A stretch of DNA of 64,000 nt from an uncultured Gammaproteobacteria bacterium (GTDB taxonomy: Bacteria; Patescibacteriota; Microgenomatia; UBA10105; UBA927), in the NCBI GenBank assembly GCA_964629685.1, contig CAZVTT010000001.1:176627-240626 (forward strand), written 5' to 3'. Under the pieces are notes generated by a model that was not told the origin of the DNA, did no database searches, and saw nothing but the letters and a program-made list of their open reading frames with translations. The position numbers and the translations under genes were made by a program. This document shows, piece by piece, positions 4,333-44,191 of this stretch. Positions within the stretch are counted from its first letter, which is position 1. Each line of letters starts with the position of its first letter.

Positions 4333-5625
4333 ATGAAACAGCTTTCAGTATTTTGGTCTTACCTACGAACCCATGTAACTCTGTTTGTATTTCCTGCCTT
4401 ACTGATCATGTTTGTATTGGGATATTTTGAATCATTACGGTGGCCGCTACCCGGACCAAAAGCCACACATGGATTCTTGAAAGCTCTTTTTCTCGGACTA
4501 GTTTTTATTTTAATTTTTTTCCGTACCGAGTTTAAGCAAACGAAGCACAAAATACAAAATTTACTGCTTCTTTTCTATTCTTTTGCATATGTACTTTCTT
4601 CTCTGTTTTCTCAGTCACCGGGGACATCATTTCTCAATCTATGGTATCCACTAATTTCCGCAACCATTATAATTTCATTTTCAAAAATCACACTCAAACA
4701 AAAACATATATATATCTTTATTTCAATTTGTGCATTATTAATCCTTACCACCTTCGTATTTGCCTTCTTTTCGATTTTCTATAGATATAGCGTTGACAAC
4801 CTCTATTACTTTATTTTTTTGGATCATAGAGCCAACTATTTTTTGAGTGAGCTGAGAAACTTCGGTAAATATGTCAGTCTGGGACCTTATATTATGCTTG
4901 CACCTCTTTGTTTTATCTTCCTTGTTCAGAAGCATTCATCACTTGCCCGGAGAATATTTTCACTTGGGATAATATTAATGACGACGATCACGGCTGTAAT
5001 AAGCAACAACCGTATCGACGTACTAATTATGGCGATACATTTTTCAATCCTGTTGTTTTTGGTTCCCCGCCGGACTGCCGTAATTATTTTAGCAATAGTT
5101 ATCCCGTTGGTTACATTTAGCCTATCGGTTTCGCAAATTTATTACGGTTTCAACTTGGCTGAGCGAATCCTTACGCCGAAAATAGAACGCGATCTGGAAA
5201 CAATAGATATGCGTTTTACGTATTGGCAAACGGCACTCTATAATTTCCGCAATTATCCGTTGGTGGGCTCCGGACCTAACTCGTATAACGATGTGAGTGA
5301 TTTCCCGTTGCGGCACTATTACGATCCCGGAACAAGACAATACACCGTACGTGCAGACGAAGGAATAGGCATTCACAATATTTTTATAGAACGACTCTCT
5401 GATACCGGACTGATTGGCTTCTCTGCGTTTATAGCGATACTGTTTTTCTTTTTAAGAACGGATGTCATCCGATTCATTAATTTTGATCCGGAAAAAAGAA
5501 AAGTATATCTGCTGTTTGCGCTTTCCTCCTGGACCTGGATCTTGTACGGAGTTACGGATAATGGCTATGGCGCTCAAGGCATGGTTACATTTTTCGTCCT
5601 GCGCGGTATAGTAAATCACCTATGA
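4333..5625 (+). CDS. O-antigen ligase/polymerase-like (Wzy_C/WaaL family) polytopic membrane protein
   Basis: About 10 predicted transmembrane segments. The loop contains HNIFIERLSDTGLIGF, resembling the Wzy_C domain. Confidence 0.6.
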   Translation: MKQLSVFWSYLRTHVTLFVFPALLIMFVLGYFESLRWPLPGPKATHGFLKALFLGLVFILIFFRTEFKQTKHKIQNLLLLFYSFAYVLSSLFSQSPGTSFLNLWYPLISATIIISFSKITLKQKHIYIFISICALLILTTFVFAFFSIFYRYSVDNLYYFIFLDHRANYFLSELRNFGKYVSLGPYIMLAPLCFIFLVQKHSSLARRIFSLGIILMTTITAVISNNRIDVLIMAIHFSILLFLVPRRTAVIILAIVIPLVTFSLSVSQIYYGFNLAERILTPKIERDLETIDMRFTYWQTALYNFRNYPLVGSGPNSYNDVSDFPLRHYYDPGTRQYTVRADEGIGIHNIFIERLSDTGLIGFSAFIAILFFFLRTDVIRFINFDPEKRKVYLLFALSSWTWILYGVTDNGYGAQGMVTFFVLRGIVNHL

Positions 5626-7839: not shown

Positions 7840-9888
7840 ATGAAAGTATTTCATTGGCTTCAGGGAATAGTATTATTCATAATATTCGCATCTTTACCCA
7901 TTTTCCTCTACTTTTCTCCAACCTTAGTAAACAGTGAGAACCTCATGTTAAAGGACAGTGATTCCTATTATTTTGTCCATCGAGCACATTACCTTGCAAC
8001 TCAGTTTAAGTCTCAAGATATATTTGGTCCTTCGAGATCCCTGTTCTATCCGGATCGATTTATGATTTTCTACGACGGTGGACTAATATATTCTGCTATC
8101 TATATTCTGTTACAAAAAGCAGTCATAAATGTTGTCCTAGCCTACAATCTTATGATACCCGTAGTTCTGGGTCTTGCAGGATTGACAATGTATTTTACGG
8201 TATTTAAGTTAACTCGGAATAAATTTTCGGCATTCGTCTCTGGATTTCTTTTTTCCTATAATCCAATCTCTGTTTCTCTTTATTGGGCACCCAATCTCTT
8301 GTCCGGGTATGCTCTCATTCCGTTAATGATCCACATCCTCATTGGGGAAGTATCATCTAAAAAATCATTCTCCTTTTCATTGGCAACAATCCTATTTGTT
8401 ATTGTGGGACTTGCATCCGTTCAAGTTTGGATGATGTCGGCACTGTTAATCTTCGGATTTATAATATTTCAGTTGCTACATCGAAGATATATATCCGCAC
8501 GATCAGTAAGCGTCTCGTATTTACTCTCTGCTATCATTTTATCCCCTCTCCTTATCTATCACAGCGTTTATTCAAATTTGTACGACATCCATAGAGACCT
8601 AGGGGGAATTATTGCCGGAAGCTTAAAGCTATGGGAAATACCACACTGGTTTATACCTTATTGTAAATCGATCGGTAACGACATAGCCACAAGTGTAAAC
8701 CCTAACATTCCATGTTCCACTAATGAGTACTTTTGGCTCGGCATCTCCCTGACAGGATTAATGGTTATTATGATTAGTTACTTACTTATAAGAAGAAAAA
8801 ATGTACATATCACCAAAGAAAACAGTTATCTGCTAACATTGTTTTTACTTTTTCTGTTTTTCGCATTTGGCCCAATTATCAAATTGAATTCTACATCAAT
8901 ATTTACACCCTATTATCTCCTTTTTATTATTTCACCACTAAACAGTATTAGAATTCCATCAAGATTTCTCTACTTCAACATAGCAATACTATGCATATGG
9001 ATTGGTTTGCTTGTCTTTCAGTTTCAAAAACTAACTAATTTCAAAAAAATATTTCTCCTAGTAATACTCATCGCATTAATAGCATATAGTATAGAGTCTC
9101 GCTACAGATTACCACCGAACTATAAACGACAACCAGCACCGTCCCAACAAGTATGGAAAGAACTCTCAAAGCCCTTATATTCGAAATATATTCTTTTTCC
9201 TATTTCTCCGTTTACAAATCCAGAACAACCTAATCCAATAGAGGCAACCGAATTTTTTGAACAGCTAGTACACCAAAAAGCTACGGTTTGGGGTTATCCG
9301 GGTTTTATGTCAGAAGCCAGTAGAAATTTACTTGAATATCTACTATTTACTGAATTGAAATATAACACAATAAAGGGGCTAGCCCTACTTGATATAGATA
9401 CAATTGTAGTAAATAAAAAAACGTATCACTTATTTGAGTTATTGCGGGATATACCGGGACTCATTAAGACATACGAAGATGAAACATATCTCATTTATTC
9501 AATTAACCTATCTGAGCTTAAACCGGTGGCAGCAACTCCATCCAATTTATCATTCGAATGTATTATAACCTCCGATAACAAACAAATAGAAGACTATCCA
9601 AACTATCCATTTCAGCTTACTCTAAAAATTTATAACAACAGTACCAATCCTTTTGTTCAAAAGAAACCACAGGAAAAAGTTCAACTTAATATTACTACCA
9701 CAAATCGGCATCTGAATAGACAATCAAGTTATCTTCAATTACCATTTCTTATTCCCCCGCACTCCTATGGTTACGCGACTACACGTTTAAAACGCTTACC
9801 GGATCAAATAAAGGATACTACACTGGTAGGTTCTAATATCTATCTTACCCAAGCAATTCGTTGTTCCGTCCAGTTTTTAGAATACTAA
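7840..9888 (+). CDS. large polytopic membrane protein with a C-terminal soluble domain; possibly a GT-C-fold glycosyltransferase (YfhO/ArnT-like)
   Basis: 682 aa. There are at least 10 hydrophobic helices in the first ~420 aa, then a soluble ~250-aa tail. Its location inside the glycan locus fits this call, but no definitive motif was found. Confidence 0.4.
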   Translation: MKVFHWLQGIVLFIIFASLPIFLYFSPTLVNSENLMLKDSDSYYFVHRAHYLATQFKSQDIFGPSRSLFYPDRFMIFYDGGLIYSAIYILLQKAVINVVLAYNLMIPVVLGLAGLTMYFTVFKLTRNKFSAFVSGFLFSYNPISVSLYWAPNLLSGYALIPLMIHILIGEVSSKKSFSFSLATILFVIVGLASVQVWMMSALLIFGFIIFQLLHRRYISARSVSVSYLLSAIILSPLLIYHSVYSNLYDIHRDLGGIIAGSLKLWEIPHWFIPYCKSIGNDIATSVNPNIPCSTNEYFWLGISLTGLMVIMISYLLIRRKNVHITKENSYLLTLFLLFLFFAFGPIIKLNSTSIFTPYYLLFIISPLNSIRIPSRFLYFNIAILCIWIGLLVFQFQKLTNFKKIFLLVILIALIAYSIESRYRLPPNYKRQPAPSQQVWKELSKPLYSKYILFPISPFTNPEQPNPIEATEFFEQLVHQKATVWGYPGFMSEASRNLLEYLLFTELKYNTIKGLALLDIDTIVVNKKTYHLFELLRDIPGLIKTYEDETYLIYSINLSELKPVAATPSNLSFECIITSDNKQIEDYPNYPFQLTLKIYNNSTNPFVQKKPQEKVQLNITTTNRHLNRQSSYLQLPFLIPPHSYGYATTRLKRLPDQIKDTTLVGSNIYLTQAIRCSVQFLEY

Positions 9889-11369
9889 TCTGAAGTTTGA
9901 TTGAGTACACAATGAATAAGTGGAGTTATACGATTGAGTAAATTTTCCGCAATCAGATAATTACCTAAGCTTGTAGCATGGCCAAAATTCCCAGCGAATT
10001 TATCCGTAAAGAGCTCGTCATAGGTATATGCTTTTAACGCATCCTTGAATATCTGTTCATTATCTATAAGTAAACTCTTTGTAATATCTTCATGACAATG
10101 ATATTCATTCGTTACCTTATCGGCACCGATAATTGAAGCTAACTCATCTACCGGACGTAAGGGATACTGCATTGCAATATGAATAACCCCGTTATTCATC
10201 AATAAATCCTTAATACGGATATAATTCTCTGTAGTCTTCTCAAATATAATTTCACGTTCCGAAACTTCTAATATTCCAGAATCAGTAGCTTGCATTTCTA
10301 AATTGTGTAATTCTAGAATAATCTGCTTATTTTCAGGTTCCAATACCAACGCCTGAGAATACATCTTCTGAGCCTCGTTGTACTGATGTTTATCACGGGT
10401 TAAATTTGCCAACCGTACAATCCATGTCACCTCTTCTGGTCTTCTTTCCACAGCTTTCCGAAGGTAATATTCTGCTTCATCAATTCGTTTTTCTAAATAC
10501 AATAAGTACCCGTATTCTCCGGCAACCCAATCATCATCTGGCTTAAGATTCAAAGCTTTTTGATACATTAATTCGGACAAATTATATCTGTCGATGGTCC
10601 GATAAAAGTTACCTAGTTCAATGTATGAACGGTAATTTTCAGGATCTCTAGCCAAATAGATATCTATGGTATCTGATAATTCCTTCTCACGGCTTAGGAA
10701 GGACAAAATTGTCATTAAATTTAAGAGCGCTATTTTATTATTTTTATCTAATGACAATGCCCTTCTGACCAAGCGTTCGGCTTTAACAAAATTCTGTTTT
10801 TGAATTTCTGAACGTGTGGATGCATTCAACCAACTGATATCATCAGTAACATGAAGTTGATTAAATAATTCAATAAAATCGGACGCACTAAGGAATAGCA
10901 GACGGTATATTTTATAAAGCCTTAGGTGTTCAATCCACGTACCAGTTTGATTTACGACAATAAATTTTTTATCTATCAACCCAATGTCATAAGTATCATT
11001 TATTCCCATCATAGAAATAACAATCTGAGGCTGATACTTACGTAGTAAATCAGGCAATTTCTCGACTATCACGTCCGTTGTAGTCCCAATGATTCCTTCA
11101 TTTAGCACTTGAATTGAAATATTTCTGTCAACAAATGCTGATTGTAACAACAATTCCAATTGACTAGCATAAGAGTCTTTTCCACCAAGCGCCGTCGTTG
11201 ATTCTCCTACGGCTAAAATTGTGATATCGGTATTTTGTACAGATTTTGCCTGAGATATGTATTGAGCGTAAATCCTTAGTAAAATTTCAACCAGCAGAAG
11301 AGAAATAACAACGCTAGCTACTAACTGCGCGACAAATTTCACGTTAATCCGATTCTTATGTAATTTCAT
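9885..11369 (-). CDS. membrane-anchored SGNH/GDSL-type hydrolase with a large inserted TPR-repeat domain
   Basis: N-terminal transmembrane helix. SGNH block I ILAVGESTTALGG, block III SMMGINDT, then about 280 aa of TPR-like repeats (for example YQKALNLKPDDDWVAGEYGYLLYLEKRIDEAEYYLRKAV). A block-V-like FAGNFGHATSLGNYLIAE lies near the C-terminus. Confidence 0.6.
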   Translation of the reverse strand: MKLHKNRINVKFVAQLVASVVISLLLVEILLRIYAQYISQAKSVQNTDITILAVGESTTALGGKDSYASQLELLLQSAFVDRNISIQVLNEGIIGTTTDVIVEKLPDLLRKYQPQIVISMMGINDTYDIGLIDKKFIVVNQTGTWIEHLRLYKIYRLLFLSASDFIELFNQLHVTDDISWLNASTRSEIQKQNFVKAERLVRRALSLDKNNKIALLNLMTILSFLSREKELSDTIDIYLARDPENYRSYIELGNFYRTIDRYNLSELMYQKALNLKPDDDWVAGEYGYLLYLEKRIDEAEYYLRKAVERRPEEVTWIVRLANLTRDKHQYNEAQKMYSQALVLEPENKQIILELHNLEMQATDSGILEVSEREIIFEKTTENYIRIKDLLMNNGVIHIAMQYPLRPVDELASIIGADKVTNEYHCHEDITKSLLIDNEQIFKDALKAYTYDELFTDKFAGNFGHATSLGNYLIAENLLNRITPLIHCVLNQTSD

Positions 11370-12050
11370 AGAATACTACGGGAAATGAAGCACATATTTA
11401 ATACATATGGCTTTTTTAAACCTCTACATTACTGTAAAAAGCCTAAACCGACACAATCATACGTCCTCCAAGTGATACTTATATTTATTCAGAAATAGAC
11501 TTGAACAGTGTACATATATGAAGTACCTTTCGGAATTATCTGAGGATATGCAAAATCAATCTTCTTACCATACAAGTGATGCTCATGATCTTCCTGACTT
11601 ACAACTATTCAAATTTAGAGCACTTGCTGCTACAACGCACAAGACGTTTAAACTATTTATATTTTGAATTACATATATCGGTACTTTTACTTTATCAAAG
11701 CATATCATGGGTAGGAATACGTATAAAAATTTCACATACTTCCCTTTTATTGCCAATAAATCACCAACGTACCTCAACAGATACCACCTGCGGAAAATCT
11801 TTATGTAAAATGCATGTATCTAAGTAATATCGTTTAAACAAGCAGTTCTCTGCATGCATTCTTGTAGTTTATATAATCAATACTATCTTCAACCAATTCC
11901 TGATAGAAACTGTTCATAAATCAAGCGAACGATTAGCTTGAAAGAAAAAATATAAGATTGGCTATTTATCAAACACTTTATATACATGCATCAAAACAAG
12001 AACACACAGTAAATTTGATAATTACTCTGAATTTATACTCTTATTCGTAA

Positions 12051-13232
12051 TCATTTCCCGAAAAATAGTACGGCTCTGAGAATTTCTGCCATTTCTTTAT
12101 AACCCGTTGAATTCATATGTTTAACAAACGCCTTCGGTTCTTCTTCTTCTGTTAGAAAAAAAGATTTTATCCGGCCGTCTATACTGGTCATTGACGCATC
12201 GACGGCTGATGCCGAAGACAACGGATTATCGCGCAAATCAATAACTGCAGGATCGTATTTATCTGCAAGTAAGGTATTTACATCAATAAAAGATTGATTA
12301 TTTCTGGAAAAAGCATCGTAGTACATTTTCCTGCGTTTCATCTCCCCCTCGTCATTGGACATACCATAGTTAAAAAAATGCTGAAACGGCATGAGGATTA
12401 TGTTCATAGTTCCCTTTTCCTGCTCAACTCGTTTTTGAATATCCGTTACGAAATAAACGGTCTTTTCTGCCATTTCCCGTTCAACTTCCTCTGAGAGGAC
12501 ATTACTGCATCCTGCTGTGGCAACCGCATCGCCACCCGGTACAAAACCGATTAAAAACAACACCATTCTTCCTATAAATGTTTGATTAACCCATGGTCCC
12601 ATATAGGTAAGCGCTTTCCCTTGGCGATACACATTATTCTTCCAGTGTGGCAGTTGTGTATATCCGCGGACACTATCCTTTCTGTAAAGGCAATAATCAT
12701 TTGCCTCGTCAAGGTCGTTTTCGTGCAGATTCCAGATAAATACGGCCGGATGGTACGTATTAACCAAACTGAGGGAATAATTATATATCTGATCAGCACC
12801 GTATCCAGGGACTCCGGCATTAATCACATTCACGTCCTGCCCGTTATCTAACAACATTTTCTCCAATTGAGCCGGGTACGATTCCAGATGGGTTGCACCG
12901 TGAGAGTATGTATAAGAATCTCCTACCATGACTATTACCTTCGTACCGCTTCCAATGTCATTATTCGCACGAAAATCAGGGCGGAATCCGAACTCATCCA
13001 CGGCCCAATCCTCCCGACTGGAGGTAGAATTATAGATATTCATATTACCGGGTATATCCGTTAACTTATATACTCTATCCTCGGATGGAATGAACATCCA
13101 TGTACGAATTTCCTGACCGATTGCGTCTTCAAAGGCCAAAGGGGGGAACCGTATCCGAAGAACTTTTCCAATACCTTCCACCAATACCAGCGAAAGAATA
13201 AAGGCCAGTAACAAGATGATCAATTTTTTCAT
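12051..13232 (-). CDS. secreted/membrane-anchored SGNH/GDSL-family esterase (candidate glycan O-acyl esterase or transferase)
   Basis: Signal/anchor MKKLIILLLAFILSLVLV. Block I VIVMVGDSYTYSHGA. Block II INAGVPGYGADQ. Confidence 0.6.
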   Translation of the reverse strand: MKKLIILLLAFILSLVLVEGIGKVLRIRFPPLAFEDAIGQEIRTWMFIPSEDRVYKLTDIPGNMNIYNSTSSREDWAVDEFGFRPDFRANNDIGSGTKVIVMVGDSYTYSHGATHLESYPAQLEKMLLDNGQDVNVINAGVPGYGADQIYNYSLSLVNTYHPAVFIWNLHENDLDEANDYCLYRKDSVRGYTQLPHWKNNVYRQGKALTYMGPWVNQTFIGRMVLFLIGFVPGGDAVATAGCSNVLSEEVEREMAEKTVYFVTDIQKRVEQEKGTMNIILMPFQHFFNYGMSNDEGEMKRRKMYYDAFSRNNQSFIDVNTLLADKYDPAVIDLRDNPLSSASAVDASMTSIDGRIKSFFLTEEEEPKAFVKHMNSTGYKEMAEILRAVLFFGK

Positions 13233-14327: not shown

Positions 14328-15478
14328 TTCGCAATGCCCTTATTCTGATTCCCTTTAACGCAAAAATTGCCGATGGTTGTGATTACGCAATCCAAACTTT
14401 AAACATTCTCGGAAAAACAAATACCGTAATCGGAGTTGCCCTCGGTGATCCTATCTCATTATGGAAATCGTTTCCCGATGTAATTCGTAAAAGAAACCTT
14501 CTAATAACACATATATGGAATAGTCGTATTGTACGTCCTGTTTTTATTTTCCCGGGACAGAGGTTTTCATTTATTCAATCGCTCAACTACATTTTTTTTG
14601 CGATCTGTTTGAAGTTGTACATCTCCTATACCCAAACGGGAAAAAGGAAAATACTCTGGTTTTTCGAACCAACACACCTGGCAGATTATATAAAAATATT
14701 TAATTCGTATACATCCGTATATGATTGTGTAGACTATTTTGGAGCTAGCTACAAATCCGTCATAAGCGAAGAAAAATACATTCTTTCACATGCTTCTGTC
14801 GTTGTAACCAATTCCGCTACGCTTGGGAACAAACTTAGACAGGTCCGGCAAGACACGGAACAAGTCCAGCTGGGATTTGCGGAAGACGTTTTTAAAAAAG
14901 TACCAAAAATTCGTTCTCCGCATGTTTTTACGGTTGGATATGTTGGTGGAATAAACTATAGAATAAATTACTCTTTACTAATTTCAATCATTAGCGAACT
15001 TAAGGATGTCCACTTCCATTTCGTTGGCCCAATTCAGCAACAATTAATCCCTAATGAACCAAATTTTATGCCTTTATTTAACAAACTTCGTGCTTTTCCG
15101 AATGTCTCATGGGTACCGGGACAACATAAACACGAAATGCCTGCAATTATTTCAGGATTTGATATAGGTCTGATTCCATATGATTCCAAATTCCCCTTCA
15201 ATCGATATTGCTTTCCGATGAAAACAATGGAGTATTTTTTCCTGGGAAAACCAGTGATTGCTACCGGCGTACAAGAAGTAGTTAAGTATAAACCGTATGT
15301 ATTCATTCCTGGCAACAAGAAGTCGTTTGTCACCTTCATAAAAACCGTTCAAAAAAACGGGTGGCAATATTCGGGTGATCAAAAAAGAGTTGCTCTGTCC
15401 CATTCATGGCGAATAAAATTAGACTCCATTAGCAGTATAATCATGACAAAGTATCCGGCTTTTTACGATGGGAATTAA
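14324..15478 (+). CDS. putative GT1/GT4-like glycosyltransferase (divergent)
   Basis: 384 aa with GT-B-like architecture (VGYVGGINYRINYSLL...FPMKTMEYFFLGKPVIATG), inside the glycan locus. Weak similarity only. Confidence 0.45.
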   Translation: MIRNALILIPFNAKIADGCDYAIQTLNILGKTNTVIGVALGDPISLWKSFPDVIRKRNLLITHIWNSRIVRPVFIFPGQRFSFIQSLNYIFFAICLKLYISYTQTGKRKILWFFEPTHLADYIKIFNSYTSVYDCVDYFGASYKSVISEEKYILSHASVVVTNSATLGNKLRQVRQDTEQVQLGFAEDVFKKVPKIRSPHVFTVGYVGGINYRINYSLLISIISELKDVHFHFVGPIQQQLIPNEPNFMPLFNKLRAFPNVSWVPGQHKHEMPAIISGFDIGLIPYDSKFPFNRYCFPMKTMEYFFLGKPVIATGVQEVVKYKPYVFIPGNKKSFVTFIKTVQKNGWQYSGDQKRVALSHSWRIKLDSISSIIMTKYPAFYDGN

Positions 15479-16721
15479 GCACCCAGATTACAGCAAACAA
15501 ACACGCCAAAAAGTGAATAAGATAACTCCCCGTCATCATCCCGACAACTCCTTCAAGACCGTTCCCGGGAATAAGCTGAAATCCCAGTATTAACTTCGCA
15601 ACTAATGTCAGCAGCATTAATAAAAACGTTAATGAAACATAGCCGTAAAAATCCAAAAAGTGACGTAGTGGGAAGATAAACACACTTTGAAATAATTTAA
15701 GTAATAAAAAAATACCTATTAACGGTTCGATCACACCGAATCCCTTACCCAAGAATGCTGTAACCAATATATGCCGTAGACTATACAGAGTATATCCGGC
15801 CATTGCGCCCACGACGAGCATTATTACCATGATACGTTTCGTAAATTGCAGGCCTTTTCTCAAATCGTTATTATGTTCGGCTATAAAACTGTGGAACAAG
15901 TTTAAAAACGGAAGAAATAGTATATCCAGACTATCTATAATAGTCGTAATTCCTGCCAGCATACCGACAGAATGGTTATTTGCAAAGCGGTTCAGTAACA
16001 AAACATCAAGGCTGGCATAGAAAACATACAGTACAAATGAACCAGACATCGGGAGAGAGTACCGGAAGTAATCTCCGATTAATCGCGCAGGAAGCGATAT
16101 TTTAACCTTCCGGATATTTCCTGCAATTCTAACGGCTAATATAAAAGCAACAATTACTGCTGCCAGAACTATGTGAAAAACCAATGAATCTGGCGACACC
16201 AACCCAAACGATAATATACCAAGTAACAAAACCAATCTGGTTAGTGGAAGCAAGATATAACTCCCTATACCATAGGCAACAATATACCGATTTGCGTTTA
16301 AGTAACCCAGAAAAAGTTCAATGTAGGCAAATACGGGAAGGAACAGTATAACATGGTTAAGTTCATCGGATGCGGACAGTACGGTACCGGTCACCAATCC
16401 AATAATGTTCGGGATAAAGAAAAAGCAGATAATCAAAATACCGGACAATACTAAAGAAACCAGAAGTGTAAGTACCAATAGGCTTACGGAAACCGTATGC
16501 TTGTCATCTATCTTTGCAATACTCGAAAATCTTACCAAAGACGTCTGGAATCCCAATAATGTCACGGAAGACAAAACCGTAAATGTGCTTAGGGCTACTT
16601 CAACCGTACCCAGCATTTCTATACCCAATCGGGCAAGCAAAGCCTTCCAGAAAAGGCTTAATATCTTCCCGAAAACCATACAGAGGATCACTATTCCCCC
16701 GCTACGCAAGTACGCTTTCAT
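15441..16721 (-). CDS. oligosaccharide/polysaccharide flippase (MOP superfamily, Wzx-like)
   Basis: 426 aa with about 12 transmembrane helices. The N-terminus GGIVILCMVFGKILSLFWKALLARLGIEMLGTVEVALS is typical of Wzx/polysaccharide biosynthesis proteins. Confidence 0.7.
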   Translation of the reverse strand: MKAYLRSGGIVILCMVFGKILSLFWKALLARLGIEMLGTVEVALSTFTVLSSVTLLGFQTSLVRFSSIAKIDDKHTVSVSLLVLTLLVSLVLSGILIICFFFIPNIIGLVTGTVLSASDELNHVILFLPVFAYIELFLGYLNANRYIVAYGIGSYILLPLTRLVLLLGILSFGLVSPDSLVFHIVLAAVIVAFILAVRIAGNIRKVKISLPARLIGDYFRYSLPMSGSFVLYVFYASLDVLLLNRFANNHSVGMLAGITTIIDSLDILFLPFLNLFHSFIAEHNNDLRKGLQFTKRIMVIMLVVGAMAGYTLYSLRHILVTAFLGKGFGVIEPLIGIFLLLKLFQSVFIFPLRHFLDFYGYVSLTFLLMLLTLVAKLILGFQLIPGNGLEGVVGMMTGSYLIHFLACLFAVIWVLNSHRKKPDTLS

Positions 16722-17993: not shown

Positions 17994-19733
<1,740 letters not shown>

Positions 19734-22330: not shown

Positions 22331-23074
22331 ATGAACAGTATGCAGCACTATAAAAAATTCCTTATTCTCGCGACGCAGCGTACAGGCTCCAATTTTTTGG
22401 CATATCTTTTAAATGATCATCCCAAAATCGTTGCCATCGGTGAGGTATACGACAAAAAGGGAATCGCCGGTCATCCAGGAAAAGAATATTTAAATAATAA
22501 ACTGTATTTAAAAATTCTTCGTGATATCGCCCCATTATATTTTTTGAATCACTATATATATAATTGCTACCCGGAAGGAACGGCAGCCGTTGGTTTCAGA
22601 TTCTTATATAACCAGGCAGAATACTTTAAACAAGTCATTAACCAAATAGAAAATTCCCGTGATATTTGGATAATTCATCTCAAACGCAGAAACTTATTTG
22701 AAAGCTATGTTTCATTTCAGCTAGCCATTAAAACCGGAATTTGGATTTCTTATAAAGGCGGCGTCCACAATTCGGAAAAAATTTCAATCGATTTCGAAGA
22801 ATGCAAAGAATATTTCAATCAAACGACCTCTCTCCAAAAAAACTTTGACTCGAGATTTCGTCATCATAAGGTGCTTACCGTGTACTATGAGGACCTGCTT
22901 GAAAAACCAAAATCCGAAATTAAAAAAATACTAAAATTTCTTAATGTAGAATATCAGGAGCTACACTCGCAGATAAAGAAACAGACGACCGCATCTCCTC
23001 AAACAATCGTCACGAACTATAACGAGCTAAAGCGTAAATTTAAATCTACACCGTGGTATGGCATGTTTAGATAA
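22331..23074 (+). CDS. PAPS-dependent sulfotransferase (Stf0/Sulfotransfer_3-like)
   Basis: 5'-PSB-like LILATQRTGSNFL near the N-terminus. 3'-PB-like HLKRRNLFESYVS. Size is 247 aa. Confidence 0.6.
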   Translation: MNSMQHYKKFLILATQRTGSNFLAYLLNDHPKIVAIGEVYDKKGIAGHPGKEYLNNKLYLKILRDIAPLYFLNHYIYNCYPEGTAAVGFRFLYNQAEYFKQVINQIENSRDIWIIHLKRRNLFESYVSFQLAIKTGIWISYKGGVHNSEKISIDFEECKEYFNQTTSLQKNFDSRFRHHKVLTVYYEDLLEKPKSEIKKILKFLNVEYQELHSQIKKQTTASPQTIVTNYNELKRKFKSTPWYGMFR

Positions 23075-23089
23075 CCCTCATATATAAAG

Positions 23090-24232
23090 CTATACCCGAC
23101 TTAGTGTCGCTTTGTACAACTCCGCAGCACGAGACAATGAAAAACGCTTCTGAACATTTCTCCGTGCGTTTTTTCCTAACGAGAACCCTACCCGGTTATT
23201 TCTCTTTATATACAGAATTTTATTGTAAACATCATCTACTGAGTTGTCTGTTAACAGGCCTTCCTGTCCATCCGAAATTATTTCTTTAACCGCAGCACTG
23301 TCTGATGCGATAATCGCTTTACCCAGGATTGAATAATCGAGTATTTTTAAAGGTGAAAAATACCGCGGCAGATATGCTGTTTCATGATATAAAGCCAGAC
23401 AAATATCTGCCCGTCTTAACAATTGCATCACGGCAGTTTTAGAAACCGTGGGAATGAACGTAATATTTTTACCCCAACTAAAGGAATACCACGGCTCTGA
23501 TCCGATCACACAAAATTCAACGTTTTTGTCAGAATAATATATTTTTTGCGCAACCCTCTCAATAATATCTAAAGCATGCCAACGATGTCTTGCATTCCCT
23601 TCCCAAAACACCCAGTATTTACCTTTTTTTAACTTAAATTCCTTTAGTACGTTCTGAGTATTAACGGTAACTTCTTCTTGGTAAAAGTTGGGAACAACTC
23701 CGAATTGTTTTGCGGCAAGTTTTGGCGCTGAATAATGAGCTAAAGTATTTGATGGAAATATATAGGCATGAACAATATTTGAAAGCAACTTCCTTACAAC
23801 ATTATCTCTCGTCACTTGCATCCGAGTCAGAAGTGATCGACTATTGTAAAACCGTTCATCCGGCCAGGCGTGAATCTCCCAAATAATCTTTGTACGATAT
23901 GATAAAAACCTAAGCAACGTAAATACTTCCAGTAAACCGGAACCGTCAATGCGAATGTATATATACTTATAGCTCCGAGCTCGCGGCAATAACGAAACCA
24001 AATCGCGTACAATATCACTTTGCCGTTCGCATGAGTATAAGTCTACAGAGTAACCTGCAGACTCCATTGCCCTTTTTCTTAGCACGGTGTTTAGACTTGG
24101 TGCCCGTGTGGAAACTTGAAGATTGTATGTAATGAATAACACGCGCTTTCCGACTGGATTATTTTGATGGAGCATATCGGGAATTTTTTTTCTTTTCCAA
24201 TTTTTCGATAACTTCCGGCGGAATATAGTCAT
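23090..24232 (-). CDS. GT4-family glycosyltransferase. The true start is probably the internal Met near 24175, since the annotated 5' end overlaps the upstream ABC ATPase gene.
   Basis: C-terminal GT4 motif ILDYSILGKAIIASDSAAVKEIISDGQEGLL. Confidence 0.65.
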   Translation of the reverse strand: MTIFRRKLSKNWKRKKIPDMLHQNNPVGKRVLFITYNLQVSTRAPSLNTVLRKRAMESAGYSVDLYSCERQSDIVRDLVSLLPRARSYKYIYIRIDGSGLLEVFTLLRFLSYRTKIIWEIHAWPDERFYNSRSLLTRMQVTRDNVVRKLLSNIVHAYIFPSNTLAHYSAPKLAAKQFGVVPNFYQEEVTVNTQNVLKEFKLKKGKYWVFWEGNARHRWHALDIIERVAQKIYYSDKNVEFCVIGSEPWYSFSWGKNITFIPTVSKTAVMQLLRRADICLALYHETAYLPRYFSPLKILDYSILGKAIIASDSAAVKEIISDGQEGLLTDNSVDDVYNKILYIKRNNRVGFSLGKNARRNVQKRFSLSRAAELYKATLSRV

Positions 24233-24950
24233 AGGTAAAGTTCTTGTAATACACCTTTATTGCTTCCAATCCCCCGTCGTAAATAATTTCGCCCTTACTG
24301 AGAATCAGTATTCTTTTGCAGTAGTCAAAAAACGTATATAAGTTATGAGATGCCATAATAATGGTCTTATCTTTACTAAACAACAGATTTGTCTCGGTTT
24401 TAATTTTATCCTTAAAATCCTGATCCCCTACCTGAAGTTGTTCGTCTAACAAAAAAATATCCGGCTTTGCATATATCGCGACTGAAAAACTTAATCGTAA
24501 TTTCATACCCAACGAATACGTATAGAGCGGCTCGTCAATAAACACTCCGATATCTGCATATCTAATGATTTCATCCATCCGATCGGATATTTCTTTGCGT
24601 GACATTCCCAGGATCATACCGTTGATATATATGTTTTCCCTTCCTGTTAAATCCGGATGAAAACCAGCTTCAAGCCCGATCAAAGAAACGACGCTACCCT
24701 CCAGACTCAGGCTTCCGGAAGTAGGGATGGTAATACCTGAAAGAATTTTAAGCAGCGTGGTCTTGCCGGAACCATTTTTACCCAGAATGCCCACTTTCTC
24801 ACCTTTACGGATGGTAAGAGAAATATTCTTTAGCGCATAGAAGTCATCAGATTTTTTCTGGAACAATCGTTCCGCAAATGTCGGCTTCTCATGACGAAGA
24901 GCGTATTTTTTTGAAATCTGATTTAATGAAATAATAGCGGGTTTCTTCAT
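24159..24950 (-). CDS. ABC transporter ATP-binding protein for polysaccharide/teichoic-acid-type export (Wzt/TagH/KpsT-like), lacking a C-terminal carbohydrate-binding extension
   Basis: Walker A GILGKNGSGKTTLLKILSG. ABC signature YSLGMKLRLSF. Walker B IFLLDEQL. Confidence 0.85.
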   Translation of the reverse strand: MKKPAIISLNQISKKYALRHEKPTFAERLFQKKSDDFYALKNISLTIRKGEKVGILGKNGSGKTTLLKILSGITIPTSGSLSLEGSVVSLIGLEAGFHPDLTGRENIYINGMILGMSRKEISDRMDEIIRYADIGVFIDEPLYTYSLGMKLRLSFSVAIYAKPDIFLLDEQLQVGDQDFKDKIKTETNLLFSKDKTIIMASHNLYTFFDYCKRILILSKGEIIYDGGLEAIKVYYKNFTYDYIPPEVIEKLEKKKNSRYAPSK

Positions 24951-25738
24951 ACAAGATCATCAAAAGAATTACTTTGTCTATTAAAAATAGAATATCCGAT
25001 ACATGAAACCGCTAGGATTATTAGCCCATTCCAGAGCATTATTGCTGTGCTTGGAAATACGCCGCCCAATAACGCATACTGAAACAATTGAATAATCACG
25101 GTTAGCGGATTAAAAAACCATAACCAAACGTATTCCCGGGGAATAAACGATAGTGTAAACACTATGGGTGTTGCATAAAACCAAACTAGAATAAGTGCCT
25201 GGACAAAAAAATAGACGTCTCTATATTTTACATTGAGAGCCGTCGTGAACAAACCAAGACCACTGGTAAACATCAGTAACAGAATTATTCCCAGGAAAAG
25301 GTAAGGAATATTAGTAAAGGAAAAGGTACCGATAAACAGAACAGGAACAATAAAAATTAACAGCGAGAGCAAAAAATGTACAAAATTAGATAAAATGATT
25401 GACAATGGGATTACTGCAACGGGAAATTTTGCTTTTTTGATTAATACCCGCTCATAAACCACGCTGGGGGTTGCCTTGGTAAGGGAAAGTGTAAAGAAAT
25501 TCCATATTATTAATCCTGAAAATAAGTAGTAGAAATAATATTCTACCTGTTGCTTAATAAAAAATTGAAAAACAGAACCAATCACCAGCATTTGTAGTAA
25601 TGGATTAACGAAAACCCACACGAAGCCAAATATGGTATTTTTATACCGGGCCTTTAACTCCTTCTCTGTCATCATCGCCAGCAGATCAAAAAATAATCTG
25701 ATTTTTTTCCGTGTATTCTGATCCATAAATAAAACCAC
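24947..25738 (-). CDS. ABC-2-type exporter permease (Wzm/TagG-like)
   Basis: 263 aa with 6 transmembrane helices. It is translationally coupled, with a 4-nt overlap, to the downstream ATPase. Confidence 0.75.
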   Translation of the reverse strand: MVLFMDQNTRKKIRLFFDLLAMMTEKELKARYKNTIFGFVWVFVNPLLQMLVIGSVFQFFIKQQVEYYFYYLFSGLIIWNFFTLSLTKATPSVVYERVLIKKAKFPVAVIPLSIILSNFVHFLLSLLIFIVPVLFIGTFSFTNIPYLFLGIILLLMFTSGLGLFTTALNVKYRDVYFFVQALILVWFYATPIVFTLSFIPREYVWLWFFNPLTVIIQLFQYALLGGVFPSTAIMLWNGLIILAVSCIGYSIFNRQSNSFDDLV

Positions 25739-29869: not shown

Positions 29870-30689
29870 AAAAATTATGATAAACCCAACACTTTGGAAT
29901 CAGATACTGGTTTGGCCGATATTAAATTTATTGATTACCTTCTACAAACTATTTGAATGGCTTAAGATCCCCGGAGCTTTAGGATTTGCCATCATATTGC
30001 TCACACTTTGCATGAGGTTGCTTCTCTACCCGCTTATGACGGCTCAGTTAAAATCCGCCCGTAAAATGGCAAAACTAAAACCTCACCTGGATGACTTGTC
30101 AAAAAAACACAAGGACAATAAAACTGCGTTACAACAAGCACAGCTTGAACTATATAAAGAGCATGGAGTAAACCCGGCTGCCGGATGTTTACCACTGCTT
30201 ATCCAATTTCCGGTCCTTATAGCACTTTATGGTGTATTTAACTCAATATTCAGCGCTGGTGATGTTGGTAAATTTATAGAATCAGTTAATACTATTGTAT
30301 ATTCCCCCGCCTTAAAATTAACGTCGCTTGATCTGACATTCTTCGGTATGAATTTGAATACGAAACCATCGGAATGGCAGACACACGGTTGGTGGTTGCT
30401 GGCTATACCGGTAATTACCGCTGGATTGCAATGGTACCAGACTAAACTTATGATGCCTCAGGAGCCACCAAAGCCATCTCCTGCTGCAATCAAACCAACA
30501 AAAAACAAGCAGGAAGAAGAAAAACCCAAAGAGGACATGGCGATGGAAATGCAGAAACAAATGGCTATTATTACCCCGCTTATGTTCGGATTTTTTGCCT
30601 TACAGTTTCCGGTAGGATTAGCGCTATACTGGAATGTATTCGGCATTTTTGGTATTATCCACCAAAGGATTATTAATGCACAATCGTGA
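29853..30689 (+). CDS. yidC: YidC/Oxa1-family membrane protein insertase (short form)
   Basis: 278 aa with multiple transmembrane helices. It has [15 protein letters not shown] and a Lys-rich region, in the canonical rnpA-yidD-yidC order. Confidence 0.8.
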
Positions 30690-31168
30690 GAGAGGAAGTT
30701 ATGGAACATACTGACACTATCAAAACGTTAACCGAAGACCTGTTAAACCGACTCGAAGTTACCGGCACTGTTCGTATTGATGTAGACGAAACCAATGCAT
30801 ACAGGGTACATATAGAAACGGAAGAAACCGGACTTTTAATTGGTTTTCACGGCAAAACATTGGAAAGTTTTCAGATTATACTGGGTATCATTGTTTCAAA
30901 GGCGCTCGGCACATGGGCACGGGTATATGTAAACGTAGGTGATTACCGCGAAAAGCGGGAAGAAGCACTCATGCTTATGGCCCAACATGCAGCAGAACGC
31001 GCGCTGGCATCAGGACGAGCTGTAGAACTGACCCACTTGTCACCTGCAGAACGCCGGGTAATCCACTTAACACTATCCGGTGACGATCGCGTTGCTACGG
31101 AATCAACAGGTGAAGGTGACCAAAGGAAGCTTTTAGTAAAACCAAAAGATCAGGTTGTTTCCGCATAG
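30686..31168 (+). CDS. jag: Jag/KhpB-like RNA-binding protein (KH + R3H domains)
   Basis: C-terminal R3H-like LSPAERRVIHLTLSGDDRVATESTGEGDQRKLLV. Located downstream of yidC. Confidence 0.75.
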   Translation: MREEVMEHTDTIKTLTEDLLNRLEVTGTVRIDVDETNAYRVHIETEETGLLIGFHGKTLESFQIILGIIVSKALGTWARVYVNVGDYREKREEALMLMAQHAAERALASGRAVELTHLSPAERRVIHLTLSGDDRVATESTGEGDQRKLLVKPKDQVVSA

Positions 31169-31216: not shown

Positions 31217-32491
31217 ATGCGACCGTTTCACCGAAAGCTATTTTACCTGCTTTCATTTTTAATTCCGACACAACTTGCAGCTCATTTCTGGCCAGAATGG
31301 AGCAGCATATTGGGTCGCAGGATAGACTACCTCTCCCCTGCTGTTTACCTAACGGATGTAGTTATAGCTGTACTTTGTATTCACTTCTGGTATTCCTTTC
31401 GAAAAAAACTTGCGGCCACTCTGGCGAAACACAAAATTATACTCACTTCACTATTTATACTGATTATCTGTAACGTTATTTCCGCAACATCCTGGGAAGT
31501 AAGCCTTTGGCACTGGATTAAATATATTGGAATTGGAATGGTCTGCTGGTACATCTATGAAAGCAAACCAGAAGAACGCTTACTCAGACTTTCTCTCCTG
31601 GGAGGCATGTCTATCTCCATTGCCTTAGCACTGGCACAATTTATTCTTCAAAAATCCGTAGGATCGGTATTCTGGTTTCTTGGTGAACGCACCTTCGCCA
31701 TTGATACACCCGGAATTGCCAGAACCACGCTCGGTGTAATTACGGGAAATGAACTGACAAATGGAGCATTGTTTCTTCGTCCATACGGGACATTCCCCCA
31801 CCCCAATGTTTTGGGTGGTATATCTGCCACACTCCTACCTCTTTTTCTAATACCCGATAAAATCCTGTCCCGATCTATACGCATTACGGGTGTACTGGTT
31901 TTATTCATTGGAATTTTTATATCGTTTAGCCGTAGCGCCATGATTGTCGGATTACTCCTGCTGCTAGGATACCAATGTCGACACATCATTCACAAAGTAT
32001 TAGACAGAATGCCCGGCCTGGTGAATCTGGGAGCTATCACACTGCTCTTCTTAACGCTAACTGCTCTCCCGCTCTGGCTACGCTTTGGCGAAAGTACAAT
32101 AAAACGTGCGGATTTAATACGCGCATCTCTGTTGATTATTAAAGGCCATCCAATATTCGGAGTCGGTTTGGGGAATTTTCTCCCCGCCTTACCTGCATAC
32201 ATGAATAGTAAAGATGTGTACTTTCTTCAGCCGGTTCATAATATTTTTTTACTACTGCAAAGCGAAATTGGTGTAATACTCTGGATTTTTATCGGCATAG
32301 GATGGATATTGATTAATAGACAAAAATCTCCCGCGTTTTTATCTCCCTGGAAAATCTCATTAGTTGCGATACTCCTGTTGGGAACATTGGACCATTATCC
32401 GGTTACGCTACAACAGGGACTACTCATCTTTAGCGTTTGTCTCGGTCAATCCGTTAGCACGGTACACCGCAAAACGACAGTCAACAGCTAA
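31217..32491 (+). CDS. O-antigen ligase/polymerase-like polytopic membrane protein (second paralog)
   Basis: 424 aa with about 10 transmembrane helices. The loop contains FSRSAMIVGLL and the Wzy_C-like GHPIFGVGLGNF. Confidence 0.6.
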   Translation: MRPFHRKLFYLLSFLIPTQLAAHFWPEWSSILGRRIDYLSPAVYLTDVVIAVLCIHFWYSFRKKLAATLAKHKIILTSLFILIICNVISATSWEVSLWHWIKYIGIGMVCWYIYESKPEERLLRLSLLGGMSISIALALAQFILQKSVGSVFWFLGERTFAIDTPGIARTTLGVITGNELTNGALFLRPYGTFPHPNVLGGISATLLPLFLIPDKILSRSIRITGVLVLFIGIFISFSRSAMIVGLLLLLGYQCRHIIHKVLDRMPGLVNLGAITLLFLTLTALPLWLRFGESTIKRADLIRASLLIIKGHPIFGVGLGNFLPALPAYMNSKDVYFLQPVHNIFLLLQSEIGVILWIFIGIGWILINRQKSPAFLSPWKISLVAILLLGTLDHYPVTLQQGLLIFSVCLGQSVSTVHRKTTVNS

Positions 32492-32514: not shown

Positions 32515-33789
32515 ATGGTACGATTAAGCGGCCCACATCCGATTCGCAACATAGTAATTAGCAATACGGGAGCTCAAATTATCGGAAAAATTGCCGGGTC
32601 CGGAACTGCATTTCTTTCAAGTGTTATTCTTGCCAGAGAATTAGGTGCTTCAGGATATGGGGATTTTTCAAAAGTCGTTACCTACGTTTCCCTCTTTTAT
32701 TTAGCTGCAGACTTTGGCATGAACGCCATTTATCTACAAAAGGTTGCCGGGACACAAGACACACGAACTTGGCAGGAATTGCTTGGAGTCCGACTGACAT
32801 TGGCCGTAGGGTTAACACTGCTTGCTGTTGCGGGATTGCTGGTACTCCCTATAGGCATTGATCAGGGATACACGGCGGGTGTACGCATGGGCATTCTGGT
32901 TTTTGCACCAAGCATTCTCCTCCAGGCTATTATTACTACCGGTAACGGATTCTTTCAGAAAAACTTATGGTATATGGGATCGACCTGGGCATTAATTTTT
33001 GGTTCTGCAACTCCCCTGCTTCTACTTCTGGCAATTACCGGCACAACAAACACATTATCACCAATACCGGCGATTATTGTTTTTTTACTTGGTACAGCAG
33101 TTACGGCTTCTTTATCGCTTAGACTTATTCAAAATCACAAACAGCCGGTACGACCCGTATTTAGGCACAAAGCTTTTACGAATCTCCTTGTCCCCTCCAT
33201 TCCTCTGGGTTTGACATTGATCAGCAACTTAGTGTTTTTTCGAATTGATACCATTATTTTGACATTAACCCGACCTACAATCGAAGTTGGCATTTACAAC
33301 TTCGCATATAAAATATTTGAACTTCCCCTGGTGATTCCCACCTTTAGTATGAATGCTCTATACCCGCTTTTAGTAAAAGCCTTAAATGAGAACAATGATT
33401 CTTACCTCGCTCTTACCAAAAACGCCTTTGTTCCATTGTTGGTCATTTCTCTGGTTGTCGGTGCTGGCCTTTGGATTTTTGCCCCCCTTGTCTCATTAAT
33501 ACAGGCGGAGTTTGTAGCTGCCATTCCCATATTAAGAATATTTTCTTTGGGTATGCCCTTTTTCTTTTTATCCAGCATTACGATGTGGATGCTGGTTTCT
33601 ACCAGGAAATACTGGCACCTTTTTTCAATATATGGACTATCCATGATTGGGGTAATTTTGAGTAATGCATATTTCATTCCGCAATACGGGGCACTTGCGG
33701 CCGCATGGCTAACCATATTCTGGGAATTCGTAGTCTTCTGCGCCTCTGCTATAATACTCACCAGACGCACACCGGCGTCCAGGCAATAA
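32515..33789 (+). CDS. MOP-superfamily flippase (Wzx-like polysaccharide biosynthesis protein; MurJ-like cannot be excluded)
   Basis: 424 aa with about 12 transmembrane helices. The N-terminus NTGAQIIGKIAGSGTAFLSSVILARELGASGYGDF is typical of Wzx/MurJ N-termini. Confidence 0.6.
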   Translation: MVRLSGPHPIRNIVISNTGAQIIGKIAGSGTAFLSSVILARELGASGYGDFSKVVTYVSLFYLAADFGMNAIYLQKVAGTQDTRTWQELLGVRLTLAVGLTLLAVAGLLVLPIGIDQGYTAGVRMGILVFAPSILLQAIITTGNGFFQKNLWYMGSTWALIFGSATPLLLLLAITGTTNTLSPIPAIIVFLLGTAVTASLSLRLIQNHKQPVRPVFRHKAFTNLLVPSIPLGLTLISNLVFFRIDTIILTLTRPTIEVGIYNFAYKIFELPLVIPTFSMNALYPLLVKALNENNDSYLALTKNAFVPLLVISLVVGAGLWIFAPLVSLIQAEFVAAIPILRIFSLGMPFFFLSSITMWMLVSTRKYWHLFSIYGLSMIGVILSNAYFIPQYGALAAAWLTIFWEFVVFCASAIILTRRTPASRQ

Positions 33790-39006: not shown

Positions 39007-39009
39007 TTT

Positions 39010-39150: not shown

Positions 39151-39180
39151 CGTTTCTATTACTACTACTAATTACTCTAT

Positions 39181-44179: not shown

Positions 44180-44191
44180 ATTACGCGCGTA

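Follow-up and report, generated by a model that had tools for sequence, protein, structure and literature searches.

A TPR array nested within the SGNH domain of a predicted membrane-anchored hydrolase family

In the 64-kb stretch of Patescibacterium DNA analysed here (the window), an open reading frame (ORF) of 494 codons very probably encodes a protein whose catalytic SGNH domain is interrupted by a basic amphipathic helix and five tetratricopeptide repeats (TPRs), all of it behind an N-terminal transmembrane (TM) anchor (Table 1). This nested layout is real and apparently undescribed, and it is assembled from well-known parts. The first-pass annotation of the window had called the architecture unusual; it is, in fact, standard within a family of 2,081 cluster representatives, often multi-copy. 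The most likely role of the protein is that of an outward-facing O-acyl esterase at the membrane surface, with TPRs that bind a partner protein or a polymer. The predicted esterase role, taken by itself, is held tentatively and at somewhat less than even confidence, and the explanation as a whole, in which architecture and function are blended, is mildly favoured.

The ORF had been placed exactly, on the minus strand and at its correct length, and every SGNH, TPR and anchor element named in the first-pass annotation was found when coordinates were checked in the translation, including blocks I to III behind the anchor (GESTT, G92 and GIND). The identical protein is recorded on three contigs, and homologs number 237 at E ≤ 1e-5, full length in most cases. 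An origin of the ORF through a frameshift, an assembly error or a fusion was considered and rejected.

Table 1. Coordinates of the nested SGNH/TPR protein, its elements, and neighbouring genes in the window
Feature	Position	Strand	Basis
ORF, 494 aa + stop: TM-anchored SGNH hydrolase (predicted), nested TPR array	9885..11369	-	ORF list
N-terminal TM anchor, residues 12-35 (FVAQLVASVVISLLLVEILLRIYA)	11265..11336	-	Kyte-Doolittle hydropathy, AF2 helix
SGNH first half, residues 48-129; strands 49-55, 86-90, 116-120	10983..11228	-	Pfam, AF2 secondary structure
Block I, GESTT (55-59), presumed nucleophile Ser57	11193..11207	-	conservation, translation
Block II, N90-E-G92, putative oxyanion-hole Gly	11094..11102	-	conservation
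Block III, GIND (122-125), putative oxyanion-hole Asn124; insert starts directly after	10995..11006	-	conservation, translation
Conserved basic amphipathic helix, residues 145-174 (WIEHLRLYKIYRLLFLS...)	10848..10937	-	AF2 helix, column conservation
TPR array, residues 178-361	10287..10838	-	
SGNH second half, residues 377-492	9894..10241	-	
Family-specific Q401-Y402-P403, end of strand 4	10161..10169	-	conservation
Block V region, D456-KFAG-N461-F-G-H464-ATSL-G469-N470	9960..10004	-	conservation, Axe2 alignment
Adjacent membrane protein, 682 aa	7840-9888		
Neighbouring SGNH-like gene, 393 aa; own TM anchor, ~95-aa N-terminal extension	12051-13232		
Wzy	4333-5625 and 31217-32491		
Wzx	15441-16721		

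Two half-domains in one predicted fold

The protein carries several of the elements by which the SGNH superfamily is recognised, namely the Gly-Glu-Ser of block I, the Gly of block II, the GxND of block III, and an alpha/beta/alpha fold of three layers built around a parallel sheet of five strands. In the AlphaFold (AF2) model (pLDDT 88), three strands lie on one side and two on the other of 11 TPR helices, with the second half comprising a helix (377-392), two strands (396-400 and 432-435), the block V loop and a final helix (467-492). The C-terminal block-V-like segment pointed out in the first-pass annotation is present, at residues 456-470, but as part of this whole second half of the fold, which spans approximately 116 residues; likewise, the proposed TPR insertion of about 280 residues agrees with the 276-residue spacing between GIND and the QYP strand, whereas the TPR array proper takes up only 184 residues.

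Three lines of evidence indicate that the two halves belong together. Structure comparison aligns the AF2 model with complete SGNH esterases of one domain, over 158-172 residues at 2.2-2.8 Å, and P0243, a TPR-less relative, gives the same structural matches with almost equal scores. In addition, a family profile from which the insert had been deleted, compared with the PDB, recovers the acetyl-xylan esterase Axe2 with an E-value of 6e-9 (profile positions 31-199), in an alignment that spans the junction and places the D-F-G-H of the family onto the D-R-V-H of Axe2, with H464 opposite the His of that motif. Together, these data show, at the level of modelled structure and profile alignment, that the two SGNH halves form one domain. 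The earlier proposal of a single SGNH domain split by a TPR insertion is thus borne out by the alignment across the junction; the N- and C-terminal segments assemble in the model into one SGNH fold, like that of complete esterases, and relatives both with and without the insert exist.

The sequence of P0243, which is metagenomic, complete and clearly TPR-less (272 residues), has about 70 residues in place of the 276 of the window protein, with which it shares the TM anchor, the blocks, the amphipathic helix, QYP, DFGH and the fold; P0180 and P0253 are intermediates. Other short matches to the C-terminal half were not accepted as insert-free orthologs, being mostly N-terminally truncated fragments that begin within the TPRs; P0243 is the only one that is clearly complete and lacks TPRs.

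Support for the second half comes from the family profile against the PDB and from structure comparisons, as HMM scans with single sequences failed to detect it. The Pfam models Lipase_GDSL_2 and Lipase_GDSL match residues 51-128 only (profile positions 1-76 of 178), the GDSL profiles still end at about position 84 of 178 when the insert is deleted from the sequence in silico, and a Pfam scan of the C-terminal 123 residues alone yields no match. That these scans see the first SGNH half only, even after deletion of the insert, would suit a plain tandem layout, in which TPRs and then a C-terminal tail of unrelated origin come after the SGNH domain, or an ORF created by assembly or fusion; this reading is given almost no weight, being contradicted already by the evidence that the halves share one fold.

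Conserved residues lie on both sides of the insert. Across 88 aligned homologs, G55, S57, T58, T59, G122, N124, D125, Y402, P403, F454, D456, G463, H464 and G469 are invariant, and these motifs are therefore not a matter of chance. Other positions are nearly so: E56 of block I is present in 87 homologs, N90 in 82 and Q401 in 81, and position 92 is Gly in 78 and Ala in the remaining 10. Position 461, in the block V region, is occupied by Asp in 58 members, Asn in 21 and Glu in three. The Asn of the window protein takes the usual place of the triad Asp (His-3), and the invariant D456 lies eight residues before H464. The replacement of the canonical DxxH Asp could point to a pseudoenzyme, inactive through Asn461, in which only the TPR function counts. 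This is very unlikely: S57, G92, N124 and H464 are intact, all 21 members with Asn, which come from several sequence backgrounds, retain S57, N124, D456 and H464, and the SGNH core, at ~40% identity, is better conserved than the TPRs, at ~28% overall. Furthermore, TviD, which O-acetylates the Vi antigen in Salmonella Typhi, can do without its block V Asp, and an SGNH lipase with a Ser-His dyad is known (PMC8760489). Judging from these sequences, Asn at His-3 is tolerated within the family, but may lower or alter activity.

Insert, membrane anchor and topology

Within the insert, five helix-turn-helix units of 34 residues each, which conform to the TPR consensus, follow one another in tandem; they start at residues 178, 212, 246, 280 and 314 and are closed by a capping helix (348-361); several TPR families of Pfam exceed their gathering thresholds within residues 239-356. 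The linkers that surround the insert (129-133 and 369-371) are modelled with low confidence (pLDDT around 50-60), so that the inter-domain pose is uncertain. Insert lengths across the family display no significant 34-residue periodicity, and variation in linker length would mask any gain or loss of TPRs by whole units.

Between block III and the TPRs lies the amphipathic region, modelled as a helix over residues 150-174, with a hydrophobic moment of up to 1.37 and the family motif [RK]-[VI]-Y-K-L-x-[RK]-L-L. It is kept in the TPR-less P0243 as well as in P0180 and P0253, and presumably binds the membrane interface. The N-terminal anchor (mean Kyte-Doolittle hydropathy 2.52) forms a helix over residues 5-41 of the model, and its residues E28 and R32 are near-invariant (conserved in at least 90%). 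A TM segment of similar kind is found in 83 of the 88 family members. Since Lys and Arg are biased towards its N-terminal flank in 67 members, as opposed to six with the reverse bias, the positive-inside rule, taken alone, predicts an N-in/C-out (type II) orientation.

Glycan locus and candidate activity

The gene sits within a large glycan locus of the Wzx/Wzy type, which encodes GT4 and GT2 glycosyltransferases, Wzy_C, Wzx, an ABC-2 exporter, Bac_transf, PIG-L, DegT, a PAPS synthase and a sulfotransferase. The adjacent 682-residue membrane protein recovers only itself in a homolog search and has no family match; it is a candidate for an acyl-translocating partner. The 680-bp gap that precedes the gene gave no Rfam match, promoter- or terminator-like sites are not in excess there, and tblastn turned up no protein remnant in it. 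The 64-kb window holds no tRNA or rRNA genes, and DnaA served for taxonomic placement in their stead; the genome is Gottesmanbacteria-like and belongs to the CPR. The 393-residue product of the neighbouring gene had been described as a second conventional SGNH esterase, a label that has to be withdrawn: it is SGNH-like, with 32% identity to the window protein over blocks I-III and a similar anchor motif, yet it is atypical, with about 200 residues between block III and the His, no Asp at His-3 and Pfam scores under gathering. A hydrophobic helix follows its block III, and it carries no TPRs.

The protein is best explained as a type II SGNH/GDSL hydrolase whose single catalytic domain breaks off just past block III, where the sheet borders the active site, and whose chain re-enters the SGNH fold after the TPR array, supplying the catalytic His. 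In the proposed mechanism, the TM and amphipathic helices would keep the active site on the outer face of the cytoplasmic membrane, where Ser57 and His464, with an oxyanion hole provided by Ser57-NH, Gly92 and Asn124, could cleave an O-acyl ester on a glycan or glycolipid close to the membrane, acetyl being the most likely acyl group. In this genome, the substrate would likely come from the Wzx/Wzy locus around the gene, either as its product or as an intermediate still linked to lipid, and the TPR array, held by two flexible linkers beside the catalytic cleft, would bind a partner or the polymer, thus positioning the substrate.

The same catalytic residues could also serve an O-acyltransferase, in which an acyl-Ser57 intermediate would hand its acyl group to a hydroxyl of the locus glycan while the TPRs dock onto the polymerase or export machinery, presumably in the manner of TviD, AlgX, PatB and OatA. 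A point against the esterase reading is that no recognisable O-acetyltransferase that could make an ester substrate is encoded in the locus. Transferase chemistry in the window protein itself is considered unlikely, as acetyl-CoA is unavailable on the extracytoplasmic side where the active site is predicted to lie, and esterases supply both the closest folds and the closest profile match. Moreover, MBOAT and AT3 (Acyl_transf_3) domains occur in no ORF of the scanned 0-41 kb region, nor do they figure in the 25 families that most often neighbour the homologs; it is because of this lack of a donor-translocating partner that the esterase is favoured over the transferase.

An esterase acting on a glycan must also be weighed against a lipid-acting enzyme, that is, a surface, membrane-interfacial GDSL lipase, a lysophospholipase or a GCAT-like lipid-dependent transacylase. 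The basic amphipathic helix beside the active-site loop, the TM anchor and the invariant aromatics around the catalytic His (F454, F458, F462 and Y450) would fit such an activity, as would the TesA/lysophospholipase L1 model, the sole NCBIfam equivalog match for the core; its matches, however, are limited to blocks I-III and fall far under the curated cut-off. Many family members lie outside glycan loci, one tandem array adjoins an AMP-binding (acyl-activating) enzyme, and Omnitrophota and Patescibacteria are over-represented in the family, which occurs also in MAGs of Chlamydiota, Pseudobdellovibrio and Rickettsiales. Against this, carbohydrate esterases head the list of structural neighbours and the gene lies within a glycan locus in this window, and the lipid-acting reading is considered rather improbable. 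Lipid processing or scavenging by small-genome or host-dependent bacteria would be a possible use of such an enzyme, with the TPRs binding a partner or a target surface.

Related systems and the family at large

TviD resembles the window protein in that a single chain joins an SGNH-type domain with TPRs and that its gene lies in a surface-polysaccharide locus, next to GT4 enzymes. Contact with the GT4 polymerase TviE and membrane association are both mediated by its TPRs (PMC8760489), and the solved SGNH structures used as templates to model it (1YZF, 4RW0, 3RJT and Axe2 3W7V) recur among the matches obtained here. Nevertheless, the TPRs of TviD are appended C-terminally rather than nested, its nucleophile is Cys and typical blocks I-III are missing, in contrast with the Ser and canonical blocks of the window protein, and it works on the cytoplasmic side without the N-terminal TM anchor that is here predicted as N-in/C-out. 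Homologs of TviD outside Vi systems are reported not to exist (PMC8760489). An NCBIfam scan of the window protein returned no TviD-type family, and the distinction otherwise follows from the published features of TviD.

A second likeness is found in alginate export, where the TPR protein AlgK and the SGNH protein AlgX form a complex that binds alginate, both components binding the polymer (PMC9734138). As in PelB-PelA and PgaA-PgaB, an extracytoplasmic SGNH-like modifier works in physical complex with a TPR scaffold, and by analogy the AlgK-AlgX partnership could have a single-chain counterpart in the window protein. In those systems, however, the partners are separate proteins, with the TPR part an outer-membrane lipoprotein or a porin fusion, and the setting is diderm and synthase-dependent, whereas the window protein belongs to a Patescibacterium and a Wzx/Wzy-type locus. 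AlgX, furthermore, bears a CBM and needs the MBOAT protein AlgI as its acetyl source, and extracytoplasmic SGNH O-acetyltransferases (AlgX/AlgJ, PatB, OatA/OafA) are coupled to MBOAT or AT3 proteins, none of which was detected in the scanned 0-41 kb around the gene. The SGNH carbohydrate acetyl-esterases Axe2 (3W7V/5BN1), CE3 (2VPT, 5B5S) and AlAXEase (7DDY) each form a compact, soluble domain of around 200 residues, with neither TM anchor nor insertion after block III; at 15-22% identity, their similarity is limited to the fold and to weak profile matches, and the motifs GESTTA, QYP and DxFxG[DN]FGH[CA]T, which are missing from them, are the query family's own.

The family is held mainly by Omnitrophota, MAGs labelled 'Planctomycetota', Elusimicrobia and Patescibacteria. 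Its gene neighbourhoods are heterogeneous, with ribosomal and recA genes around some homologs and other homologs in tandem arrays with an AMP-binding enzyme, and a BLAST comparison of the window proteins with the ORFs of 79 homolog loci found almost none that recur besides the target family, which indicates that there is no conserved operon partner. A glycan role can therefore not be generalised. The first-pass suggestion that the protein tethers an enzyme to the glycan-assembly machinery is plausible as a candidate for this window, where the locus agrees with it, but gene context differs among family members, so that it does not hold as a general rule. Family proteins are currently annotated simply as 'tetratricopeptide repeat protein'.

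SGNH enzymes set the acyl status of surface glycans and peptidoglycan, and thereby recognition by phages, the immune system and lysozyme. To our knowledge, the recruitment of these enzymes to their substrates has been described in few systems only, with TPR proteins as separate scaffolds; the present family integrates the scaffold into the catalytic domain, at an active-site loop. On present evidence, it opens no new kind of biology. A more speculative proposal, which we regard as improbable, is that the family as such represents, in a single chain, the partnership of TPR scaffold and SGNH modifying enzyme otherwise known only in trans (AlgK-AlgX), with the TPR array threaded into the loop next to the catalytic cleft and its groove passing a partner-bound or polymeric substrate straight to an active site on the membrane surface, and that some members, since no AT3/MBOAT donor is present, use membrane lipids as acyl donors for surface glycans, a route that we know of in no description of bacterial Wzx/Wzy glycans. 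If this were true, the abundance and multi-copy expansion of the family in Omnitrophota, in Patescibacteria and in further lineages of small-celled or host-dependent bacteria would point to lineage-typical remodelling of the cell surface.

With thousands of members in almost wholly uncultured phyla (Omnitrophota, Patescibacteria, Elusimicrobia), the family bears a label that conceals a probable enzyme, and recognition of the split domain would correct these annotations. The ectodomain, with and without its insert, constitutes a defined biochemical target, and the family adds a case of domain nesting within a common hydrolase fold.

Architecture of the SGNH-TPR protein

SGNH and TPR modules are both textbook domains. 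In the 494-aa product of the ORF listed at 9885-11369 (minus strand), the first-pass annotation had described an SGNH domain split by TPR-like repeats, and translation at the window coordinates verified GESTT (residues 55-59), NEG (90-92), GIND (122-125), QYP (401-403) and DKFAGNFGHATSLGN (456-470). The repeats are also borne out, five TPR families passing Pfam gathering thresholds within residues 239-356. Sequence matches in the PDB comprise TesA for residues 48-125, and consensus-TPR and OGT TPR proteins for approximately 189-372. The GDSL profiles of Pfam cover no more than residues 51-128, aligning there with profile positions 1-76 of 178, and single-sequence Pfam scans with an insert-deleted query or the C-terminal half alone failed to extend into the profile's second half.

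Three independent results point to a single split SGNH domain, as the annotation had claimed, rather than an SGNH domain followed by TPRs and a tail. In the AlphaFold2 model generated from the 88-sequence family alignment (mean pLDDT 88.4, pTM 0.74), strands 49-55, 86-90 and 116-120 precede the helical array and strands 396-400 and 432-435 follow it, with confidence dipping only in two linkers (129-133 and 369-371). In addition, a family profile of 21 members with the insert removed matched the acetyl-xylan esterase Axe2 in the PDB (5bn1/3w7v; E 6e-9, profile positions 31-199), in an alignment that spans the insert junction and places the family D-F-G-H on Axe2 D-R-V-H.

Features of the SGNH-TPR protein (residues) and of the surrounding glycan locus (window positions)
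Feature	Position	Strand	Remarks
TM anchor	residues 12-35		near-invariant E28 and R32
SGNH blocks I-III	residues 48-129
Linker	residues 130-144		low confidence
Basic amphipathic helix	residues 145-174		conserved; family motif [RK]-[VI]-Y-K-L-x-[RK]-L-L
TPR array	residues 178-361		five TPRs spaced exactly 34 residues apart; capping helix
Linker	residues 362-376
Rest of SGNH fold	residues 377-492		QYP motif and block V
Wzy_C proteins	4333-5625; 31217-32491
Wzx flippases	15441-16721; 32515-33789
ABC-2 exporter	24159-25726		Wzm/Wzt type
PAPS synthase	17994-19724	-	bifunctional ATP-sulfurylase/APS-kinase
Sulfotransferase	22331-23074	+

The insertion point lies 1-5 residues past the block III Asn, probably where E. 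coli TesA has its substrate-responsive "switch loop". In the SGNH fold every catalytic block lines the sheet's C-terminal edge, and thus both tethers of the TPR array would emerge at the active-site rim. TviD also combines SGNH and TPRs in one protein, but its TPRs are appended, whereas those described here are nested; full-text literature searches did not yield a nested layout that also has an N-terminal anchor and a conserved amphipathic helix, and there is no dedicated Pfam or NCBIfam model for it.

Distribution and variation of the family

A search with the full protein identified 237 homologs at E<=1e-5, most covering at least 87% of the query and, where named, mostly called just "tetratricopeptide repeat protein". 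The C-terminal half matched 2,081 representatives of 50%-identity clusters (E<=1e-3), in nearly all cases at the very C-terminal end of proteins 400-650 aa long. The nested layout, initially regarded as unusual, is widespread and mis-annotated, not a one-off oddity of the window. Species-representative genomes hold at least 398 family loci, the best 79 of which include Omnitrophota (35), entries labelled Planctomycetota/-ia/-ales (18), Elusimicrobia (5) and Patescibacteria (4), with single cases in Chlamydiota, Pseudobdellovibrio, Rickettsiales and others. Multi-copy genomes are frequent (108 members across 77 loci); one locus on DATJPV010000016.1 (L083:387-8681) carries four tandem paralogs with an AMP-binding (adenylate-forming) enzyme in between. 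Its MAG is labelled "Patescibacteria group", yet a FadL/Toluene_X outer-membrane protein is encoded nearby, making that bin's taxonomy or purity doubtful.

Across the 88 aligned homologs, G55, S57, T58, T59, G122, N124 and D125 are invariant before the insert, as are Y402, P403, F454, D456, G463, H464 and G469 after it. The insert, 220-349 aa long, is far less conserved than the core (identity of ~40% in the core versus ~28% overall). TPR-less variants, which the annotation had proposed seeking, do exist and are rare among the top matches: P0243 is a full-fledged homolog lacking TPRs, with P0180 and P0253 as intermediates. Other short matches are truncated fragments.

The query carries Asn461 at the usual Asp site of DxxH, a position occupied in the 88 sequences by D (58), N (21), E (3) or other residues (6). 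This would fit a pseudoenzyme, one of the main rival readings. However, N461 occurs in several sequence backgrounds, always with S57, N124, D456 and H464 retained, which speaks for a variant that is tolerated, not for decay; moreover, TviD keeps its activity with Ala in place of the block V Asp, and a Streptomyces SGNH lipase functions via a Ser-His dyad (PMC8760489). In the present family the invariant Asp456 might stand in for the acid. Near the catalytic elements, residues 53, 399 and 465, all Ala in the query, are Cys in 69, 47 and 65 of the 88 members and tend to co-vary (D-C-C-C in 37 members versus N-A-T-A in 7); these positions may serve in buried packing or be sensitive to redox state.

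Gene neighbours and the glycan locus

The gene lies within a ~34-kb glycan locus encoding several GT4 and GT2 glycosyltransferases, a Bac_transf initiating transferase, a PIG-L deacetylase, a methyltransferase and DegT/GFO sugar-modifying enzymes. With two Wzy-like and two Wzx-like proteins and an ABC-2 exporter, the locus seems to encode two or three distinct routes of glycan export, and the PAPS synthase and sulfotransferase suggest a sulfated surface glycan; sulfation is a costly pathway for a reduced Patescibacteria genome of ~0.95 Mb. The proposed tethering to glycan assembly is plausible in this locus but does not hold as a rule for the family, because homolog neighbourhoods vary (among them radical-SAM/B12 enzymes, carbamoyltransferases, PMT_2 GT-C enzymes, other TPR and GDSL proteins) and in one case include ribosomal and recA genes. 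When window proteins were compared with the 79 homolog loci, almost none recurred apart from the family itself, and no neighbour of the gene was syntenic with the family.

The adjacent 7840-9888 (+) encodes a polytopic membrane protein of 682 aa whose C-terminal ~250 aa are soluble, convergent and tail-to-tail with the SGNH-TPR gene, their stop regions sharing 4 bp. It has no Pfam/NCBIfam family, matched only itself in a word-indexed search of 5.8 billion proteins, and might act as a polymerase, as a GT-C-like enzyme or as a so far unrecognised partner of the SGNH proteins. On the other side, 12051-13232 (-) had been called a second conventional SGNH esterase, a description that does not hold, since the gene is SGNH-like but atypical: block III (HEND) and the His (KHMNSTGY) lie ~200 aa apart, and position His-3 is not Asp. 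The protein is anchored by a TM segment of its own, with a comparable "LVE...LR" motif, and has a ~95-aa N-terminal extension, a hydrophobic helix at the site of the TPR insert, and 32% identity to the SGNH-TPR protein that is confined to blocks I-III; proteins of a related type adjoin family members in 7 other loci. No gene, RNA family or protein remnant could be recognised in the 680-bp AT-rich stretch between these two minus-strand genes (11370-12050), and GC at 8-12 kb (0.34-0.35) is below the window average of ~0.42.

The window, part of a contig recorded at 953,690 bp, also carries dnaA-dnaN, yidC and jag. Its DnaA shares 71-74% identity with proteins of Candidatus Gottesmanbacteria and Patescibacteria, placing the organism near the former; since dnaA and dnaN are close to yidC and jag (37633-40290 and 29877-31168), the window appears to span the replication-origin region. 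At 41306-46246 (minus strand), a 957-aa protein with a C-terminal M23 peptidase domain adjoins a 684-aa VirB4/TraG-like P-loop ATPase; with a 1018-aa protein without Pfam match (52515-55571), they may form a type-IV-secretion-like or pilus-associated module.

Proposed activity

The positive-inside rule predicts an N-in/C-out topology for the family (67 members versus 6 opposite), which would put the enzyme on the outside of the cytoplasmic membrane in an organism not known to have an outer membrane. Its most likely reaction is to hydrolyse an O-acyl ester carried by a glycan or glycolipid close to the membrane, favoured because the closest folds are carbohydrate acetyl-esterases and the gene forms part of a glycan locus. 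Transferase chemistry, a main rival, would call for an acyl-donor partner, and the ~34-kb locus encodes no AT3 or MBOAT protein, which again favours hydrolysis; the other main rival assigns the enzyme a lipid substrate. The TPRs would bind a partner or polymer, by analogy with TviD-TviE (PMC8760489) and AlgK-AlgX (PMC9734138).
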